A model generated the notes under the pieces. The model was not told where the DNA came from. It was given only the letters and a program-made list of their open reading frames with translations, and searched no databases. A stretch of 64,000 nt of DNA from Phycisphaerae bacterium (lineage in GTDB: Bacteria > Planctomycetota > Phycisphaerae > UBA1845 > Fen-1342): NCBI GenBank assembly GCA_963675745.2, contig CAXXWX010000013.1, forward strand, positions 96,001 through 160,000. The letters are read 5' to 3'. Shown piece by piece: positions 44,065-50,441 of this stretch (positions are counted from its first letter, which is position 1; the number at the start of each line of letters is the position of its first letter). The translations under genes and the position numbers were made by a program.

Positions 44065-44089
44065 CGGCCGGCGAGGCGCCGGCCGTTAC
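44065..44089 (-). repeat. REP-like family A copy
   Basis: Exact reverse complement of the 3341 copy. Confidence 0.85.
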
Positions 44090-44200: not shown

Positions 44201-44887
44201 CTATGGCTTGCGGAGGCGCATGGCCAGGAGCATTGGCCAGCCGAGGTATTTCTCGGCGCGCGGGGCGCGGGCGGCAAGGTCGGCGTCGGCGCGGCGTTCG
44301 ATCAGCTCGTCGATCGTGAAGCCGGCGCGCAGCGCGGACAGGACGTAGTCGGCGTAGGTGTGCTCAAACGCCGCCACGCGGACTTCTTCGCCGGTGTGCG
44401 GGTCGGCGAAGCGGGCGGTGATGCCGCGCAGGTTCATCGCCGGGTGCAATACCGTGAAAATCAGCGACCCGCCGGGGCGCAACACGCGATGCAGGTCGCG
44501 CATTGTGACGACGAGATCGGTGAGATGGTCGGCGACCAGGGCCAGCAGGACCAGGTCGTACGCCCCGTCCGGCGCGGGAAGCGCGTCGGGCAGCGTGTGC
44601 TCGATGAAGCGCGCGCCGCTGTCGCCGAGCTTGGCGCGGGCCCGGGCCATCATGCCGGTTGAGGTGTCATAAGCGTCCACGTCAGCACCGGCGCCGGCGA
44701 GCCAGACGCTATGGCGTCCGGTGCCACAACCCACGTCCGCCACACGCAGCCCGCGAACCTGGCCGGCCCATTCGCGGACGACCGGCTCTTCGAGAACGAT
44801 GAGCGGGTTGAGCTCGCCGTCATAGATTTCCGCCCAGCGTTCGTAGCCGGCGCTCACATCGAGATGAAGTGGTTCCGCCATCTGCAT
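44201..44887 (-). CDS. Class I SAM-dependent methyltransferase
   Basis: GYERWA.IYD...NPL, VADVGCGTGRH, YDLV, RVLRPGG. Confidence 0.92.
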   Translation of the reverse strand: MQMAEPLHLDVSAGYERWAEIYDGELNPLIVLEEPVVREWAGQVRGLRVADVGCGTGRHSVWLAGAGADVDAYDTSTGMMARARAKLGDSGARFIEHTLPDALPAPDGAYDLVLLALVADHLTDLVVTMRDLHRVLRPGGSLIFTVLHPAMNLRGITARFADPHTGEEVRVAAFEHTYADYVLSALRAGFTIDELIERRADADLAARAPRAEKYLGWPMLLAMRLRKP

Positions 44888-45180
44888 ATCCCCAAGTGGT
44901 CATGGCACGGCCTGGACGCGAACCGCCGTGCCCAAGCGCCGCGAGTGTAACACATCCGCCCGGGTATGTGGTCAGGTGGCGGCGATGACTGGAAACCGGG
45001 GGGCTGTGGCAGCTCCGGCGGGACTCAGCTTTCACGTGGCCACGATCACCCCAGCACTTCGTGCCGGGCTATGCTCATCTCGTGCGGGACGGCATGGCTG
45101 CGACCGGCCGATTGTGTCGCGGAACTGGGAACCGGGCACGGCCGGGCGTGGCCCTGTGGTTGCAATGCTGTCTGCACCAT

Positions 45181-47112
45181 CTATCTCGAATTGGCTCGTT
45201 GGTGCTCGGCGCGCACGTTCACAGCACTATCGGCGCACGACGCTGCAAGGGGGTCCGACGACGTATGAGCAAACGCGGCACTTCGCCGTGGTGACTGGAG
45301 TTTCGGCGACGGGAGATGCTCGATCGCCCAATTGATCTCCTCGCCGCTGGCTGCATCGATCATCGGGATGCGGGCCACGCGGAGGCCTTCGTAGACTTTC
45401 ACCGGACCGTGTTTGAGCCGCCAAGCCCAGGTGAGCATCCTGGGGATAGTCAGCAACAGCCCGATCTGTCCGATGAACTGGTACAAGAGACGTCTCGAGG
45501 ATACAGCGTCCTTGCGGATTCTCAGCAGTGCGCGGGCGGCATTGACCGGGTTGTAAAACGTGAAATAGGCGCGCAGCAGGTTCAACTGCTGCTGCCAGGG
45601 CTGCGGGTGTTGTGACGCCACGACGTGATTACCGTCCTGCAACGCATTCGGCACAGGCTTCCTGCCCACACATTCAAACACGGACCCGGAAGTCAAGGCC
45701 GGCTCCAGGATGCGCGTGCCGATGGCGGGGCCCAGGTAGGTGCATTGATAGCTCACCGCGCCCTGATCGAACACGTAACGCGCCTGGTTCAGCAGGCCGG
45801 AAAGATTGGTCGGGCCCGAACGCAGCGGCTGCGTGTCGCTGTGGATCATCATCACGTGCGCCTGAATACCGAGATTGTGCATCAACGCAAAGAGCTGTCC
45901 GGTACGGTCCGCGCTCTGGCCCTTCTTCACGAGTTTGCCGGTGAGGTCTTCAATCCCAAACCACAGCCCGCGCAGTCCGGCCTTGCGACACAACGGCAGC
46001 AGATCCCGGTTCTTGAATACGTCCGCCTGAGTCGCTTCGGTGTAAAACCTGATCCGTTTGCCGAGCGGTACACCGTCGGTGGTGGACCGGTCGAGTTCGC
46101 GCATCAGCGTTTCGACCGTATCGCGATCGTTAAAGAAGTTGTCATCGGTCCCAAAGAAAGCACCGATTCCGAAGCTCTCGTGGATGTGCTTGATCTCTCC
46201 CGCAAAACGTCGCGGGCTCTTGTGTCGCCGTGTGCGCTGGTTTGCGGCGGGAATCGGGCAGTAGGGGCAATTGAAGCGGCAGCCCTGCGTGGCGATTACC
46301 GAGGCGATGGGCGATAGCCTGCCGATGCGCTTTGGTGTGCAAGGCTGCGCGGCCAGCGTGTGGCGGCGGTGCGGCGGCTCGATCATGCGAAAGCCGGCGT
46401 CAGGCATCGGCAGTTCATCGAGGTCGCGCAGGAGCCGCTGCACGCCCGTGTTGACGGCGACCGGTTCGCAGCTATGCGCGTCCGGCGACAGATACACCAG
46501 TCCCGGCACACTCTTGAGCCGGCCACTCAGCCGGGCGTTGTCGAAAGCAGCGCGCGCGGTTTGATGATCATGCCGATCCGCCAGGATGGTATGCAGCAGG
46601 TCCAGGAGCACGAAGGCTTCGCCGGTGGCGACACAGTCGGCACCGATGCCCGGCTGTGGACCGATCTCGAAGAAGTCGGTCGGCTCGTAGATGGCCTTGG
46701 GGCCTCCCGCGAGTATCAGCGGGCGCTCATCACCCATGCGGTGCGCATCTCGAACCAGCTCATACGCCGGCTTGACGTGTACCTGCATGGACGACACCAG
46801 CAGGATGTCCAACGGTCTGCCGTTGAGCTGCATGCGGCTGGGCAGAACATTCGGCGACCACTGCTGCAACACGATGCGGAGGTTGCGGAAACCGGCATCG
46901 TGCAGCACGTCCCCCAGCAGGCGAACCGAGCAGGGCGCCATCCGCTTGTCCGCGTACCAATAAGGCAGCATCCGCGTGCGGAAATCAAACGCGTTGACTA
47001 TTCCGATCGCCAGCTCGTGAGCATGCTTGAACTGCCGCAGGGCGTCGACGCGCTCCCGGAATCGGTCGTCCGGCAGGTAGACATCATCACGGTCTCTTCG
47101 TGGAAGTTCCAT
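45181..47112 (-). CDS. Cobalamin-binding-type radical SAM protein
   Basis: N-terminal B12-binding-like region (LLVSSM, ILAGGP, TGEA, VPGL); TQGCRFNCPYC (CxxxCxxC); DDNFF; FGIE. Confidence 0.88.
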   Translation of the reverse strand: MELPRRDRDDVYLPDDRFRERVDALRQFKHAHELAIGIVNAFDFRTRMLPYWYADKRMAPCSVRLLGDVLHDAGFRNLRIVLQQWSPNVLPSRMQLNGRPLDILLVSSMQVHVKPAYELVRDAHRMGDERPLILAGGPKAIYEPTDFFEIGPQPGIGADCVATGEAFVLLDLLHTILADRHDHQTARAAFDNARLSGRLKSVPGLVYLSPDAHSCEPVAVNTGVQRLLRDLDELPMPDAGFRMIEPPHRRHTLAAQPCTPKRIGRLSPIASVIATQGCRFNCPYCPIPAANQRTRRHKSPRRFAGEIKHIHESFGIGAFFGTDDNFFNDRDTVETLMRELDRSTTDGVPLGKRIRFYTEATQADVFKNRDLLPLCRKAGLRGLWFGIEDLTGKLVKKGQSADRTGQLFALMHNLGIQAHVMMIHSDTQPLRSGPTNLSGLLNQARYVFDQGAVSYQCTYLGPAIGTRILEPALTSGSVFECVGRKPVPNALQDGNHVVASQHPQPWQQQLNLLRAYFTFYNPVNAARALLRIRKDAVSSRRLLYQFIGQIGLLLTIPRMLTWAWRLKHGPVKVYEGLRVARIPMIDAASGEEINWAIEHLPSPKLQSPRRSAAFAHTSSDPLAASCADSAVNVRAEHQRANSR

Positions 47113-47115
47113 CGC

Positions 47116-47400
47116 TCAGTCTCGATGACGTTCGTTGCGGTACAGTCTGAGTCCCGACTTCGGGTCGCTCTTGCGAACATCCAGCGTCGTGTTTGCCAAC
47201 GCCTTCGATACGGCCTCATCCAGCAGCAGCACCTTGCGGCCATCGTGCGTAAACGCTGTGTCGTCAGCGGATTCGTGATCGAGGCGCAACGTCCAACCAC
47301 CTTCGCGGCGTGTGAACCTCAGGGCCATGCCTTGAGCGGCCTTCTTGCGGGCCAGCCGGTTGGATAAGCGACCAAGTGCGGTTTTCGTTACGGTCAACAT
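47116..47400 (-). CDS. Small HesB/IscA-like protein lacking cysteines
   Basis: MLTVTKTALGRL..LRF..LRLD..DD....DG.KVLLLDE....L...TLD; real start lies inside ORF 47116-47796. Confidence 0.65.
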   Translation of the reverse strand: MLTVTKTALGRLSNRLARKKAAQGMALRFTRREGGWTLRLDHESADDTAFTHDGRKVLLLDEAVSKALANTTLDVRKSDPKSGLRLYRNERHRD

Positions 47401-47497
47401 GTTCCACCATCCATTCTTCCATCGATTGGCCGCGGCGCGGCGGGCGCTCCGACCTGGCAACGCTAATACCGACCACGCCGCGCCCTTCCGAAGCGCC

Positions 47498-47929
47498 TCA
47501 TGTTCCGGCCGAGTCCTCTGCGGAAGGATCACCGTTGCTCCAAACGTCGGTTTCGACGTTGTCTGCAAGCAGGAAGACCTGCACGACCGTGCCGCTCGCG
47601 AACGTTCTGACCACTGCACCGGTACTCGGCTCGACCTCAGCGGTCGCCTCACGCACCTTCGCGCCGGTAATCCGTTCAATGTCGCGCCGGAGTGTGCCCG
47701 CGGCGCTGGCGAAAAGCTGCCGGTGATACTCCTGTACCCTGGCGGCGCCGTCGGGACTCTTGGCCAGGGCCTTCTCGGCTTCTGACATGGCTCCATGCAG
47801 CGTTATGACCAGCGCATCGTTGCTCAGCACGACCGTAGCGGACGTTGGGGCATGGCCGGTTCGTTCGCGCTCGAACGTCTTGGCCGCTTGGGCAATCTGC
47901 TGCGCCATGCTCGATTTGGGCTTGTCCAA
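47498..47929 (-). CDS. DUF2294 / MpsC-family protein
   Basis: IAQAA..FERERTGHAP..V....D.LVITLHG..SEAEKAL..IE.ITG.KV; TTG start after AAGGA. Confidence 0.85.
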   Translation of the reverse strand: MDKPKSSMAQQIAQAAKTFERERTGHAPTSATVVLSNDALVITLHGAMSEAEKALAKSPDGAARVQEYHRQLFASAAGTLRRDIERITGAKVREATAEVEPSTGAVVRTFASGTVVQVFLLADNVETDVWSNGDPSAEDSAGT

Positions 47930-47978
47930 AAGAGCTTATCCTTGTCGGTTGCTGCCGTCCCTGAAATTGAAGCCATAG

Positions 47979-48026
47979 AAAAAGCCGATGTGGTCGAACA
48001 CGCGGTGTGTTCGACCACATCGGCTT
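47979..48026 (-). terminator. Intrinsic terminator/attenuator in the DUF2294 leader
   Basis: Perfect 20-bp stem 47982-48001/48007-48026, ending in a T run on the minus strand. Confidence 0.85.
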
Positions 48027-48067
48027 ACTCGTCAACGAGCCCTCCGGCCGTAGCCGGGTTGCCCTTC
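48021..48067 (-). promoter_or_regulatory. Candidate riboswitch aptamer (resembles the Na+-I / DUF1646 motif)
   Basis: Minus strand AAGGGCAAC-CCGGC-TACG-GCCGG-AGGGCTCG-TTGA-CGAG-TAAGCCG: two hairpins, possible GGCT/AGCC pairing; 3' end is shared with the terminator. Confidence 0.6.
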
Positions 48068-48286
48068 AAATCGTCATCCGACGTCTGAGCGCCAATTCAC
48101 GAGCGGAACATTGCACGGGCTTTGCGCTCGCATGCACTGAGATTATTATAACACACCGCCGGTGGGAGGCAAGCGAGTGTCCCCCGGCAGGGCAGTGTGC
48201 AACGGGCCGCGTGAAAGAGAGCGGCGCACATCCGCATGGTCTCGCCTGCGGCCGTAGCCAGCTTGACGAAACGCGTTGAGGGCATC

Positions 48287-48667
48287 ATGAAGACCCAGGG
48301 AGAAATCGAAGCCGCGATTTGTGAAGGTGTCCGGCGTTTTGAGCAGGAGTACATGGGCCGAGGCCCCAAGGACATTCACACGCACTTGATTGGCGATCTT
48401 CTCGTCGTTCGACTTCTGGGGGTTTTGACCGCAGCCGAGCAGCAGCTCGTCGACTCGCTTCCGGCGGACAAAGGGCGAGGACTGCTCAAGCAGGTCAGAA
48501 CGCAGTTGATCGAAACCGCCCGCCCGGTCCTCGAGACCACGGTTCAGGAAGTCACCGGCAGCGAGGTCGTCAGCCTGCACCACGATATCAGCACACTCAC
48601 CGGTGAGGAAATCGTGCTCTTCACTCTGGCCAAGCCTCCCGCGTTTCGCGAGAAGAAGTCCAAGTGA
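48287..48667 (+). CDS. DUF2294 / MpsC-family protein
   Basis: MKTQGEIEAAIC..RFEQEYMGRGP..GVLTAAEQQL..KQVR..LHHDIST.TGEE. Confidence 0.92.
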   Translation: MKTQGEIEAAICEGVRRFEQEYMGRGPKDIHTHLIGDLLVVRLLGVLTAAEQQLVDSLPADKGRGLLKQVRTQLIETARPVLETTVQEVTGSEVVSLHHDISTLTGEEIVLFTLAKPPAFREKKSK

Positions 48668-48695
48668 GAAGCTACTGGACAGTGCCGGCCCGCCG

Positions 48696-48938
48696 CTAGT
48701 GCTCGCTTGAGTCGGCGCTTCCCTCGTCCGCACCGCGCACACCCTCCCCAACATCGTGCACACCCACGCCATCATCGCGCATGACCTCGCCGTTTTCATC
48801 GAGCGTTGCGGCATCGGCATCGGCGCGGTTCTGGCGGCGTTCACGTTTCTGGGCGGCTTTCTCGGCTTTGTCGAGTTCGCGCTGCCGCTTCTGATACTCG
48901 CGTTGGCGTTTCTGAACGGACGGTCGCTTTCGTGCCAT
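48696..48938 (-). CDS. Small basic/acidic hypothetical protein
   Basis: MARKRPSVQKRQRE..K..K...KRERR; AAGGGAG RBS. Confidence 0.7.
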   Translation of the reverse strand: MARKRPSVQKRQREYQKRQRELDKAEKAAQKRERRQNRADADAATLDENGEVMRDDGVGVHDVGEGVRGADEGSADSSEH

Positions 48939-49308
48939 CTTGACTCCCTTACGGGTTAGATCGGCGGCGTATGGTCGGGTTGCCATCACCATCGAGCAAA
49001 CATTGAGAACGCCGACCGCAGCTCGGGCGAGTCACGTGAACGCCGCCAGCCGATGCCCGCGCCGCGTCCCAGCGAGCTGTTCGCCGAGTTGCCACCGTGC
49101 GAAACCGGCGTCGCCTCGACCTGCTCACGCGGCATATCGATCGCGTATCGCGCATGGGCCAATCTACGGCCCGTCGCTTGCAGATTCCGCACGCTGCATA
49201 CGCCCGAAGCGCGCGCTGGCCGCTGTGTCACGGCCGGCATGTCGAGCTACCCTGCGCCGCGCACGCCCGGCGTGGCCGGCAGACCGGCGCGTGTTGTCAG
49301 CGTAAGGC

Positions 49309-49599
49309 CTACCAGCGTCCGCCGCGTCGGCCACCGCTGTTGCCGGCCGGGCGTGGCTTGGCTTCGTTGACCTTGATCGTACGGCCACCGCACTCCGTGC
49401 CATCCAGTGCCGCGATCGCCGCCTCAGCCTCCGCGTCCGAGCTCATTTCGACAAACCCGAAGCCCTTGCTGCGGCCGGTATCGCGGTCGTTGATCACGGT
49501 CGCGCTGTCCACGGTCCCATGGTCGGCGAACATCTGCTGAAGGTCATTGCCGGTAACGTCATAGCCAAGGTTTCCCACGTACAGTTTCCTACCCATCAT
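49309..49599 (-). CDS. RRM RNA-binding protein
   Basis: RNP2 LYVGNL, RNP1 KGFGFVEM, VNEAKPR, Gly/Arg tail. Confidence 0.96.
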   Translation of the reverse strand: MMGRKLYVGNLGYDVTGNDLQQMFADHGTVDSATVINDRDTGRSKGFGFVEMSSDAEAEAAIAALDGTECGGRTIKVNEAKPRPAGNSGGRRGGRW

Positions 49600-50135
49600 G
49601 AATCTCCAATTGTCCCAATGACCGTGATCTCCCGCCTCGCCCTGACCGCGTTGGGTCCGCTATTGGCCAACCGGACGGCGGTTCGTGCCGGCCGGGCCGT
49701 CTGGCAGCCCCTGAGATGCGGGCCCAGCCGGACGGTGTCCTCTTTCCCACGGAAATCAGGCCGGTATCGAAGTGGCAGTGCTGGGGAGGCGTGAACTCGG
49801 ATTCTCGGGCTCTCTAAGTTACCTGCGGCGCGTTCGCCGCTGCTTGCTGCCCAACGACGTACAGCGCAGACCGGGGCAGATCTGCATGCTGCGCATGCGT
49901 CGGGCCATCCATCGAGCCTCAGTGATCTATCCCGTTTCGGGAAAAGGCACCCGCTGACCCCGGGCGGACGCTCAGGAAGAGGGAGGATCATAGAAGATCG
50001 CTACAGTGGTAGCGTAGCCGGGTGGGCCCCGGCGGGCAACCGCGATTCCCGATATATCTGCCACCGCCGAGCGGAGGCCCCGCGGCCGGGCATCCGCGCG
50101 GCATGGAGAGTGTGTTTTTTGGCGCTCGGTGAGGC

Positions 50136-50163
50136 TTGACTTCAGCGGGAGATATGTTACACT
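50136..50163 (+). promoter_or_regulatory. Sigma70-type promoter
   Basis: TTGACT-N16-TACACT with extended TG. Confidence 0.45.
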
Positions 50164-50201
50164 CCCGTAGGAGTGTGTTGGGGGTGTAATGGGAGTGCCG
50201 T

Positions 50202-50441
50202 TTGGCGAAAAAGAAACACGGTGCCGGCAAGAACGTGACGCTCAAGATCCCCGCCGCGTTATATCAGAACCTGGCGCAGCTCATCGAGGGGACGGGTTTC
50301 AGGAGTGTCACCGAGTTCGCGGTGCATGTGCTTCGTGACGTGGCCAGTGGCGGCAGCCTGGATCTGGGCGCCACCGGGTTTACGGCTCGCGAAGTGCAGT
50401 CGGTCCGCGAGCGGCTCCGGGCTCTGGGTTACATCGAGTAG
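50202..50441 (+). CDS. CopG/ribbon-helix-helix regulator
   Basis: VTLKIP..LY..L..LIEGTGFRSVTEF..HVLR..RLRALGYIE; GGGAG RBS, TTG start. Confidence 0.85.
   Translation: MAKKKHGAGKNVTLKIPAALYQNLAQLIEGTGFRSVTEFAVHVLRDVASGGSLDLGATGFTAREVQSVRERLRALGYIE

Follow-up and report, generated by a model that had tools for sequence, protein, structure and literature searches.

The leader of a three-gene unit in a 64,000-nucleotide stretch of a Phycisphaerae bacterium (contig CAXXWX010000013.1, positions 96,001 to 160,000; hereafter the window) belongs to a conserved family of transcription attenuators, in which an antiterminator overlaps a stronger terminator. The unit, on the minus strand, encodes a variant MpsC (DUF2294) protein, a small HesB-like protein and a putative cobalamin (B12)-dependent radical S-adenosylmethionine (SAM) enzyme, and a second, canonical mpsC gene is divergent from the leader. 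A sequence-only reading of this DNA had proposed a Na+ riboswitch. The leader is not the known Na+ riboswitch, and the chances that canonical MpsC is an RNA-binding antiterminator acting on it appear evenly balanced. Attenuation by an antiterminator is a known kind of system; the RNA family and the candidate protein are new as far as Rfam 15 and the searched literature reach, and the clade-level link of the leader to the radical SAM enzyme is what this window adds. The features carrying the argument are the following, with coordinates in the window:

48172-48145, minus strand: sigma-70-like promoter (-35 TTGCCT, 16-nucleotide spacer, extended -10 TG-TATAAT; 10 of 12 positions matching).
48099-48131, minus strand: putative GAGC...GCTC hairpin on the 5' side of the conserved element, visible on inspection in this leader and ahead of many other copies.
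48082-48019, minus strand: antiterminator rod, based on covariation, whose 3' strand also serves as the terminator's 5' arm.
48026-47979, minus strand: intrinsic terminator with a perfect 20-bp stem (48026-47982) and a U run, based on covariation and fold energies.
47929-47498, minus strand: variant MpsC/DUF2294 with a TTG start, first gene behind the leader (PF10057, E 6.8e-21, 74.9 bits, cut-off 23).
47400-47116, minus strand: basic, Cys-free open reading frame (ORF) of 94 amino acids with weak HesB/IscA similarity (NF038090, E 0.007).
47112-45181, minus strand: radical SAM ORF of 643 amino acids with a B12-binding-like domain (PF04055, E 3.2e-11; CxxxCxxC at residues 278-285).
48287-48667, plus strand: canonical MpsC/DUF2294, divergent from the leader, candidate trans-acting regulator (PF10057, E 9.7e-35, 119.4 bits, cut-off 23).

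The three co-oriented genes and their gaps of 97 and then 3 nucleotides, taken directly from the sequence, agreed with the sequence-only reading, as did the assignment of the first to DUF2294 and of the third to the B12 radical SAM enzymes. The second gene product was indeed Cys-free, but its HesB similarity proved weak. That reading had ended the locus at 48067, whereas the structured element starts outside it, at 48082, and it had missed canonical mpsC. The absence of adjacent mpsA and mpsB genes was confirmed; in the genome assembly (91% complete) the DabA/MpsB query gave no match and the MpsA query a single partial match of 32%. The promoter match was weak alone (2 sites found in the region against 1.1 expected); by eye, a similar TTGCWW...TATRAT arrangement recurs with equal spacing ahead of most of 45 leader copies inspected. 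Metagenome contigs across the stretch carried no frameshift (one study, which may be the source of the sequence), and among the public runs listed there was none from RNA that contained it.

The structure of the leader was analyzed on an alignment of 72 hand-picked copies, which are related to one another and from which the structure itself was drawn. The rod comprises a basal 5-bp helix, an internal loop, a 3-bp helix, a 7x7 internal loop and an apical stem-loop. Pairing reached 94.4% over its 18 pairs, with two-sided changes at 13 of them, a level attained by none of 500 shuffles, while slid partners gave 28–54%. Pairing was 93% in the basal helix that overlaps the terminator arm, two-sided changes included; the basal helices showed sparse variation (two-sided change at 2 of 5 and 1 of 3 pairs), and the terminator showed covariation at 16 of its 21 pairs. 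A GGA at the 5' strand was conserved in 92–100%, and both internal loops hold conserved unpaired nucleotides. A K-turn or SAM-I-like apical loop was considered by eye and rejected, as the G-A positions vary.

Rod and terminator share five nucleotides and are mutually exclusive. The terminator was more stable than the antiterminator in 62 of the 72 copies, and for the whole window leader the fold energy was -63.9 kcal/mol when the terminator formed and -47.4 kcal/mol when the basal antiterminator helices were imposed. The 5' region of the window leader alone did not prefer the rod (z -0.8). Since the terminator dominates and the rod is not preferred by itself, the leader would be OFF by default and something would have to hold the rod. 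The two exclusive structures and the dominance of the terminator were established computationally, as were the gene associations given below; inside the cell, the leader presumably acts by attenuation.

The leader had previously been read as a sodium aptamer followed by a terminator. The terminator, within an attenuator, was upheld, but the Na+ aptamer was not. Rfam 15 gave no match over the leader, either at gathering or at E ≤ 10. The Na+ riboswitch model RF03071 (gathering 40.5 bits) had no match at E ≤ 10 on 47400-50300, and when run genome-wide it gave one chance match (14.2 bits, E 5.7) on another contig. According to PMC9337991, the aptamer of the Na+ riboswitch (DUF1646 motif) is built of two hairpins, P1 and P2, and its essential nucleotides lie at the P1 base and within the loop of P2; a leader terminator competes there with an upstream structure and an ON switch is predicted, as here. 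It differs in its P1 and P2 hairpins, where the present leader has one long rod, and the short words common to the validated constructs were absent from the window leader (across the 72 copies, one word occurred in none and another in 6). Its targets differ as well, those of the present leader not being cation transporters or Na+-coupled enzymes. Among the Pfam-named ORFs behind leaders (20 of 74 and 41 of 85 ORFs named), no Na+, K+ or H+ transporter was found, and one VIT-family protein was present. The failure of RF03071 and the missing hallmark sequences are the reasons for excluding the known Na+ riboswitch. The Rhodopirellula-1 motif, an AAC...GUU-bounded rod, was also rejected, as the alignment rows examined (PMC2864571) share neither ends nor terminator with the leader. 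No description of this RNA family was found in Rfam 15 or the searched literature, although it may be listed in the supplements of PMC5737381 and PMC11109978.

Three copies of the leader are carried by the genome, one in the window and two on contig C15, where they precede another variant mpsC and a GlsB/YeaQ/YmgE-SPFH pair; a canonical mpsC in divergent orientation lies next to these as well. The cultured species Singulisphaera acidiphila (L023) also has a copy. Among the loci found via variant MpsC, 64 of 68 had the leader, and 98 full copies were found in total; three of the four loci lacking it have less than 100 nucleotides of upstream sequence. By record titles, 66 of the 68 belong to Planctomycetota. 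Planctomycete-type leader-MpsC loci also occurred in records titled archaeon (L040) and gammaproteobacterium (L005), possibly mis-binned. Variant mpsC follows 54 of the 98 copies and other genes the remaining 44. Behind these 44, 20 of 74 candidate ORFs could be named by Pfam: GlsB/YeaQ/YmgE (5), CsbD (2), sigma-70 (2), DUF1571 (2) and single cases of CsrA, GroEL, KaiC, a PAS kinase, a desaturase, DUF2934, DUF3300, DUF5670 and a collagen-OmpA protein. The search behind variant mpsC, for which 85 of 92 candidate ORFs were submitted to Pfam, showed csrA as the next gene in 21 of 52 operons. Up to about ten leader matches were present per genome. The targets read as a set of general-stress and regulator genes, and GlsB/YeaQ/YmgE, CsbD and DUF2934 are of general or osmotic stress type. 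In L003-L070, the DabA, MpsA and PEP carboxykinase (PEPCK; PEP, phosphoenolpyruvate) queries found no match and the SbtA query one.

The second MpsC island of the genome (L002, C15:8384-14797) comprises the two leaders, GlsB/YeaQ/YmgE, SPFH, variant MpsC, a host-attachment (baeRF12) protein and a DUF4070-type B12 radical SAM enzyme that faces another B12 radical SAM enzyme; an ATP synthase gamma gene follows canonical mpsC there. Contig depth over 47902-48042 rose 15- to 70-fold in three metagenome runs, and the loose ends seen there look like further copies of the element; hence, the leader family is common in that community.

The tie between leader and MpsC was examined in 151 genomes of the class, among which kin are not independent. 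The leader model matched 24 genomes and PF10057 28, both being found in 18, where independence would predict about 4.5; a 20-letter degenerate pattern run on the 151 genomes returned nothing but noise. In a phylum sample, 14 genomes had MpsC, including all 4 that had the leader. Of the ten MpsC genomes of the class that lacked a model match, 7 have a diverged leader immediately behind mpsC, and in 3 the locus runs to the end of its contig. Counting either type, 25 of the 28 MpsC genomes have a leader. Loci with only canonical mpsC carry a promoter and a diverged leader directly after it, then PEP carboxykinase (either type), DUF4914 or other genes.

The leader model was built solely from planctomycete window-type copies, diverged leaders being outside its training. 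It ranked the diverged post-mpsC sites first in 73 kb, in L072 (E 0.003), L078 (E 0.025) and L076 (E 0.13), where PEP carboxykinase follows, and in L082 (E 0.015), and further post-mpsC matches were obtained in L203 (E 9e-5) and in the Clostridia record L091 (E 2.7e-6). Of 46 MpsC loci, 29 passed a descriptor devised once both leader types had been seen; of 150 control stretches, 6 did. These diverged leaders, directly after canonical mpsC, read GGC in place of GGA, and the core common across phyla amounts to about 12 nucleotides in a single rod. An Anoxybacillus (Bacillaceae) record has the order mpsC, leader-like element and SbtA-type bicarbonate permease; the element passes the descriptor, and the model scores only its terminator (E 0.8). 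The one MpsC locus on viral contigs has a leader. No model match was obtained at the expected place upstream of Staphylococcus pettenkoferi mpsA, a region interrupted by an IS6 element. A "cis-acting leader of ndhF?" (RsaX05) is listed before S. aureus ndhF in the Table of PMC2790875. On contig C27, a structured stretch with a terminator (about 134600-134490, a secreted-type protein downstream) passes a relaxed descriptor and does not pass the model.

In the mechanism that we propose, RNA polymerase would start near 48138 and stop at the terminator, the leader serving as a default-OFF attenuator. A trans-acting factor would stabilise the rod antiterminator and remove the 5' arm of the terminator, giving read-through. 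This factor would most likely be canonical MpsC/DUF2294, produced from the divergent gene outside the attenuated unit, and its recognition site would be the small conserved core in which GG-NN-GAY pairs with RU-A-R-GCC. Multiplication of the element in Planctomycetota would have produced a regulon comprising stress-type genes, csrA and variant MpsC, and in one clade the leader would also gate the Cys-free HesB-like gene and the B12 radical SAM enzyme. Variant MpsC, encoded first behind the leader, may feed back. The best guess for the signal, from the diverged leaders, is bicarbonate/CO2 or a central-carbon metabolite, which is more likely than sodium.

A regulatory role of MpsC is suggested because canonical mpsC mostly lies outside the attenuated unit, as regulator genes usually do. 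It is further suggested by the co-occurrence of leader and MpsC, by the post-mpsC leaders found without training and by the invariant Arg and Lys residues of canonical MpsC (R25, R42, K68 and R71, with H98 and D100, in 51 sequences). In addition, a receiver-MpsC fusion behind an HWE kinase (L081:3007-3882) matches the layout of output domains such as ANTAR. The canonical and variant proteins of the locus are 23% identical, and alignments show that the GRGP and HxDxS motifs present in canonical MpsC are missing from the variant. In L082:580-2898, a variant MpsC is fused to a GTP-type PEP carboxykinase behind two tandem leader-like elements. Canonical MpsC was predicted to have an alpha/beta fold with a predicted local distance difference test (pLDDT) score of 89.7 from an alignment of 91 sequences, the pLDDT being only 49 without it. 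Foldseek with this model gave no match at E ≤ 0.001, and neither did a PDB sequence search or the ESM Atlas give one for MpsC. In a fold comparison the best Z was 6.4, with RbfA at 5.3 (root-mean-square deviation 4.0, 89 aligned) and the KH protein 3gku at 5.1, values in the range of common arrangements. No function of MpsC was described in the searched literature.

Protein-dependent antitermination on ribonucleic antiterminator (RAT)-type sites is known from BglG/LicT/SacY, GlpP and HutP. Those systems share with the present one an imperfect rod with internal loops over the 5' arm of a terminator, default termination and a regulator gene beside the operon. The present leader differs in its RNA sequence, its longer rod and its many copies per genome, and MpsC has no sequence match to the RAT-system proteins. 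ANTAR regulons are alike in having a small domain, alone or receiver-fused, and one RNA motif repeated before many genes, but ANTAR targets are twin hairpins and its fold is a helical bundle, whereas MpsC is predicted to be alpha/beta. S. aureus mpsABC and Bacillus subtilis ybcI belong to the same protein family, PF10057 (PMC6689103), and the window locus differs from mpsABC in lacking MpsAB and in having the two MpsC paralogues.

Several observations weigh against MpsC as the antiterminator. Six of the 24 leader genomes (92–99% complete) have no MpsC match, although two of these searches had no positive control; four of the copies concerned are decayed-looking or at contig ends, and those of G220 and G264 are intact-looking. 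Canonical MpsC is near neutral (median isoelectric point (pI) 6.4, net charge -1). According to PMC6689103, an S. aureus mpsC deletion has no phenotype and grows normally in air, mpsA or mpsB mutants being impaired there; mpsAB alone complements, and mpsC is dispensable for MpsAB function. S. aureus MpsC is thus not an obligatory activator of mpsAB. Furthermore, the planctomycete targets are not bicarbonate genes, and one signal for both leader branches is unsupported. A wider reading, in which MpsC/DUF2294 would be a new RNA-binding antitermination family sensing inorganic carbon or a carboxylation metabolite across phyla, is put forward only tentatively. Under it, MpsC would have been rewired in Planctomycetota, with a second inhibitory or co-acting paralogue under its control, into a global post-transcriptional stress regulon including csrA and the B12 radical SAM enzyme.

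Other explanations were weighed against this one. The rod could be the aptamer of a new riboswitch class (for bicarbonate, oxaloacetate/PEP or a nucleotide messenger) with which MpsC merely co-travels, a reading that we consider unlikely but worth serious attention. It would agree with the conserved unpaired nucleotides of both internal loops, with the apparently intact copies in the two genomes that gave no match to MpsC and with the diverged copies before PEP carboxykinase and, in the Bacillaceae record, the bicarbonate permease. However, a cross-phylum core of this size in a single rod is small for an aptamer; canonical mpsC is tightly linked yet mostly outside leader control, and the targets differ sharply between the branches. 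Likewise, the trans factor could be another RNA-binding protein, such as CsrA on the conserved GGA, the RNA recognition motif (RRM) protein or the basic HesB-like protein, the MpsC proteins being partners. The frequent position of csrA after variant mpsC, the conservation of GGA and the RRM genes as frequent neighbours are in favor of this, but the GGC of the diverged leaders and the absence of csrA from the window locus, the genome's single csrA being on another contig, make it distinctly improbable.

The element might also be a short terminated trans-acting RNA (e.g., one titrating CsrA) or a mobile promoter-terminator cassette, with read-through as only a leak. Its own promoter and very strong terminator, its copy number per genome and the failure of the window's 5' region alone to fold into the rod would be expected under this reading. 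The basal helix that overlaps the terminator arm is nonetheless highly paired with two-sided changes, and a gene start in the same orientation lies a short way downstream of nearly every copy; we regard it as very improbable. The slightest chance is given to a Na+-sensing switch, of the known or a new class, turning on a lipid-modifying enzyme under salt, as had originally been proposed. The ON-switch architecture is the same as that described for the Na+ riboswitch in PMC9337991, and the second MpsC island also ends in a DUF4070-type B12 radical SAM enzyme. The CsbD, GlsB/YeaQ/YmgE and DUF2934 targets would suit it too. Nevertheless, RF03071 and the hallmark words failed, cation transporters are absent among the named targets, and the enzyme lies far below the lipid-methylase cut-offs. 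The Pfam name of the family, "Na+-translocating ... MpsC", is a poor guide, since mpsC is dispensable for MpsAB function and not collocated with mpsAB outside staphylococci (PMC6689103).

Of the 68 loci, only 5 have the radical SAM enzyme family behind variant mpsC, which makes it a minority cargo. On the enzyme side, 62 metagenomic loci were sampled, 46 of them with at least 1 kb upstream; a same-strand upstream leader was found in 19 of 24 loci at ≥68% identity and in 0 of 22 at 57–67%, a cut chosen after seeing the data. A midpoint-rooted FastTree phylogeny was built from 80 near-full-length sequences (some rows near-duplicates, genome loci with 1.5 kb of flank only); in it, the clade of the window enzyme (support 0.97) has 27 members. 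Eighteen have the leader; of the rest, 6 lack a leader in the DNA examined yet carry mpsC or the HesB-like gene, 2 have too little upstream DNA and 1 has none of these. Outside the clade, 2 of 53 have a leader, namely L157 (decayed) and L003, a 43% paralogue in the same leader-mpsC-HesB cassette. The leader-radical SAM link is real but confined to one clade, within which it is conserved. The leader stands directly before the enzyme gene in L103, L114, L151 and L157, and the enzyme is therefore itself a target. The family occurs in 57 of the 151 class genomes, mostly without the leader, and is mainly planctomycete and uncharacterised.

The enzyme appears to belong to the cobalamin-dependent radical SAM enzymes, by its CxxxCxxC core (C278/C282/C285, invariant in the family) and its predicted N-terminal B12-binding domain. 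The latter (PF02310) is weak in the window enzyme (E 0.037, below cut-off); with E ≤ 0.5 allowed, 24 of the 27 family members showed it, the best value being 9e-7. Profile matches of the family were AprD4 (E 2e-7), TokK and TsrM, and a DUF4070-type, PF02310-positive enzyme was matched by HHalign at 99% over 371 columns. The family shares this N-terminus and core with HpnP/HpnR/HpnJ, BchE, TokK, TsrM and AprD4 but is separate from them. The window enzyme scored 32–46 bits against the HpnR, HpnJ, BchE and ladderane models (cut-offs 360–650), about one tenth of every named-family cut-off; the scores and cut-offs in bits were 41.6/650 for HpnR, 36/577.6 for HpnJ and 32.4/360 for the ladderane radical SAM model, and the list scored held no HpnP model. 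Lipid methylation by it is possible but unsupported, and the proposed membrane lipid remodelling loses its footing with these scores. The enzyme departs from two positions conserved in at least 95% of the family (G16D, P418A) and has Arg at 295 where others have an aromatic residue or His, changes that could affect its activity. A 46% identical paralogue lies at C1:82796-84682, with no leader or MpsC nearby. An RRM gene was seen within 1.5 kb upstream of many leaderless orthologues (L115, L124, L125, L129, L137-L139, L142, L150 and L165).

The HesB-like protein is not a standard Fe-S carrier (IscA/HesB), being Cys-free and far below the family cut-off (16.7 of 85 bits on the A-type carrier model). 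With E ≤ 1 allowed, PF01521 matched 16 of the 48 homologues, the best value being 0.0036; 5 of the 48 have at least two Cys, and the median pI of the family is 10.8. A profile search found no relative of solved structure.

If the proposed mechanism is true, a widespread protein family now misnamed after sodium transport would gain a function, a cis-regulatory RNA family missing from Rfam would be defined, and a testable mechanism would be available for how heterotrophic bacteria may tune carboxylation and bicarbonate uptake genes. For Planctomycetota, whose gene regulation is little known, it would delimit a regulon with as many as about ten units in a genome and place an orphan B12 radical SAM family there. 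A false lead is also removed, as on present evidence the leader is no salt switch on a lipid methylase.

Two further genes lie beyond canonical mpsC:

48696-48938, minus strand: small Arg/Lys-rich ORF without a Pfam match, at the same position in L030, L096, L105 and L110 (a conserved cassette in some relatives).
49309-49599, minus strand: RRM RNA-binding protein (PF00076, E 8.5e-23; NF058537).

Downstream of the radical SAM gene, a class I SAM methyltransferase (44201-44887) follows on the same strand after 290 nucleotides containing a repeat; it is probably outside the unit, since it is not conserved beside radical SAM orthologues. The repeat itself, a dispersed element of 110 nucleotides directly after the radical SAM gene (45011-45125), has 27 further matches in the genome and may be a miniature inverted-repeat transposable element (MITE)-like element or a small RNA. 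An Rfam scan of the window gave one tRNA and two chance matches. Finally, a near-palindrome of 25 nucleotides resembling repetitive extragenic palindromic (REP) sequences was located at about 44065-44089, with 108 matches at ≤2 mismatches, both strands counted.

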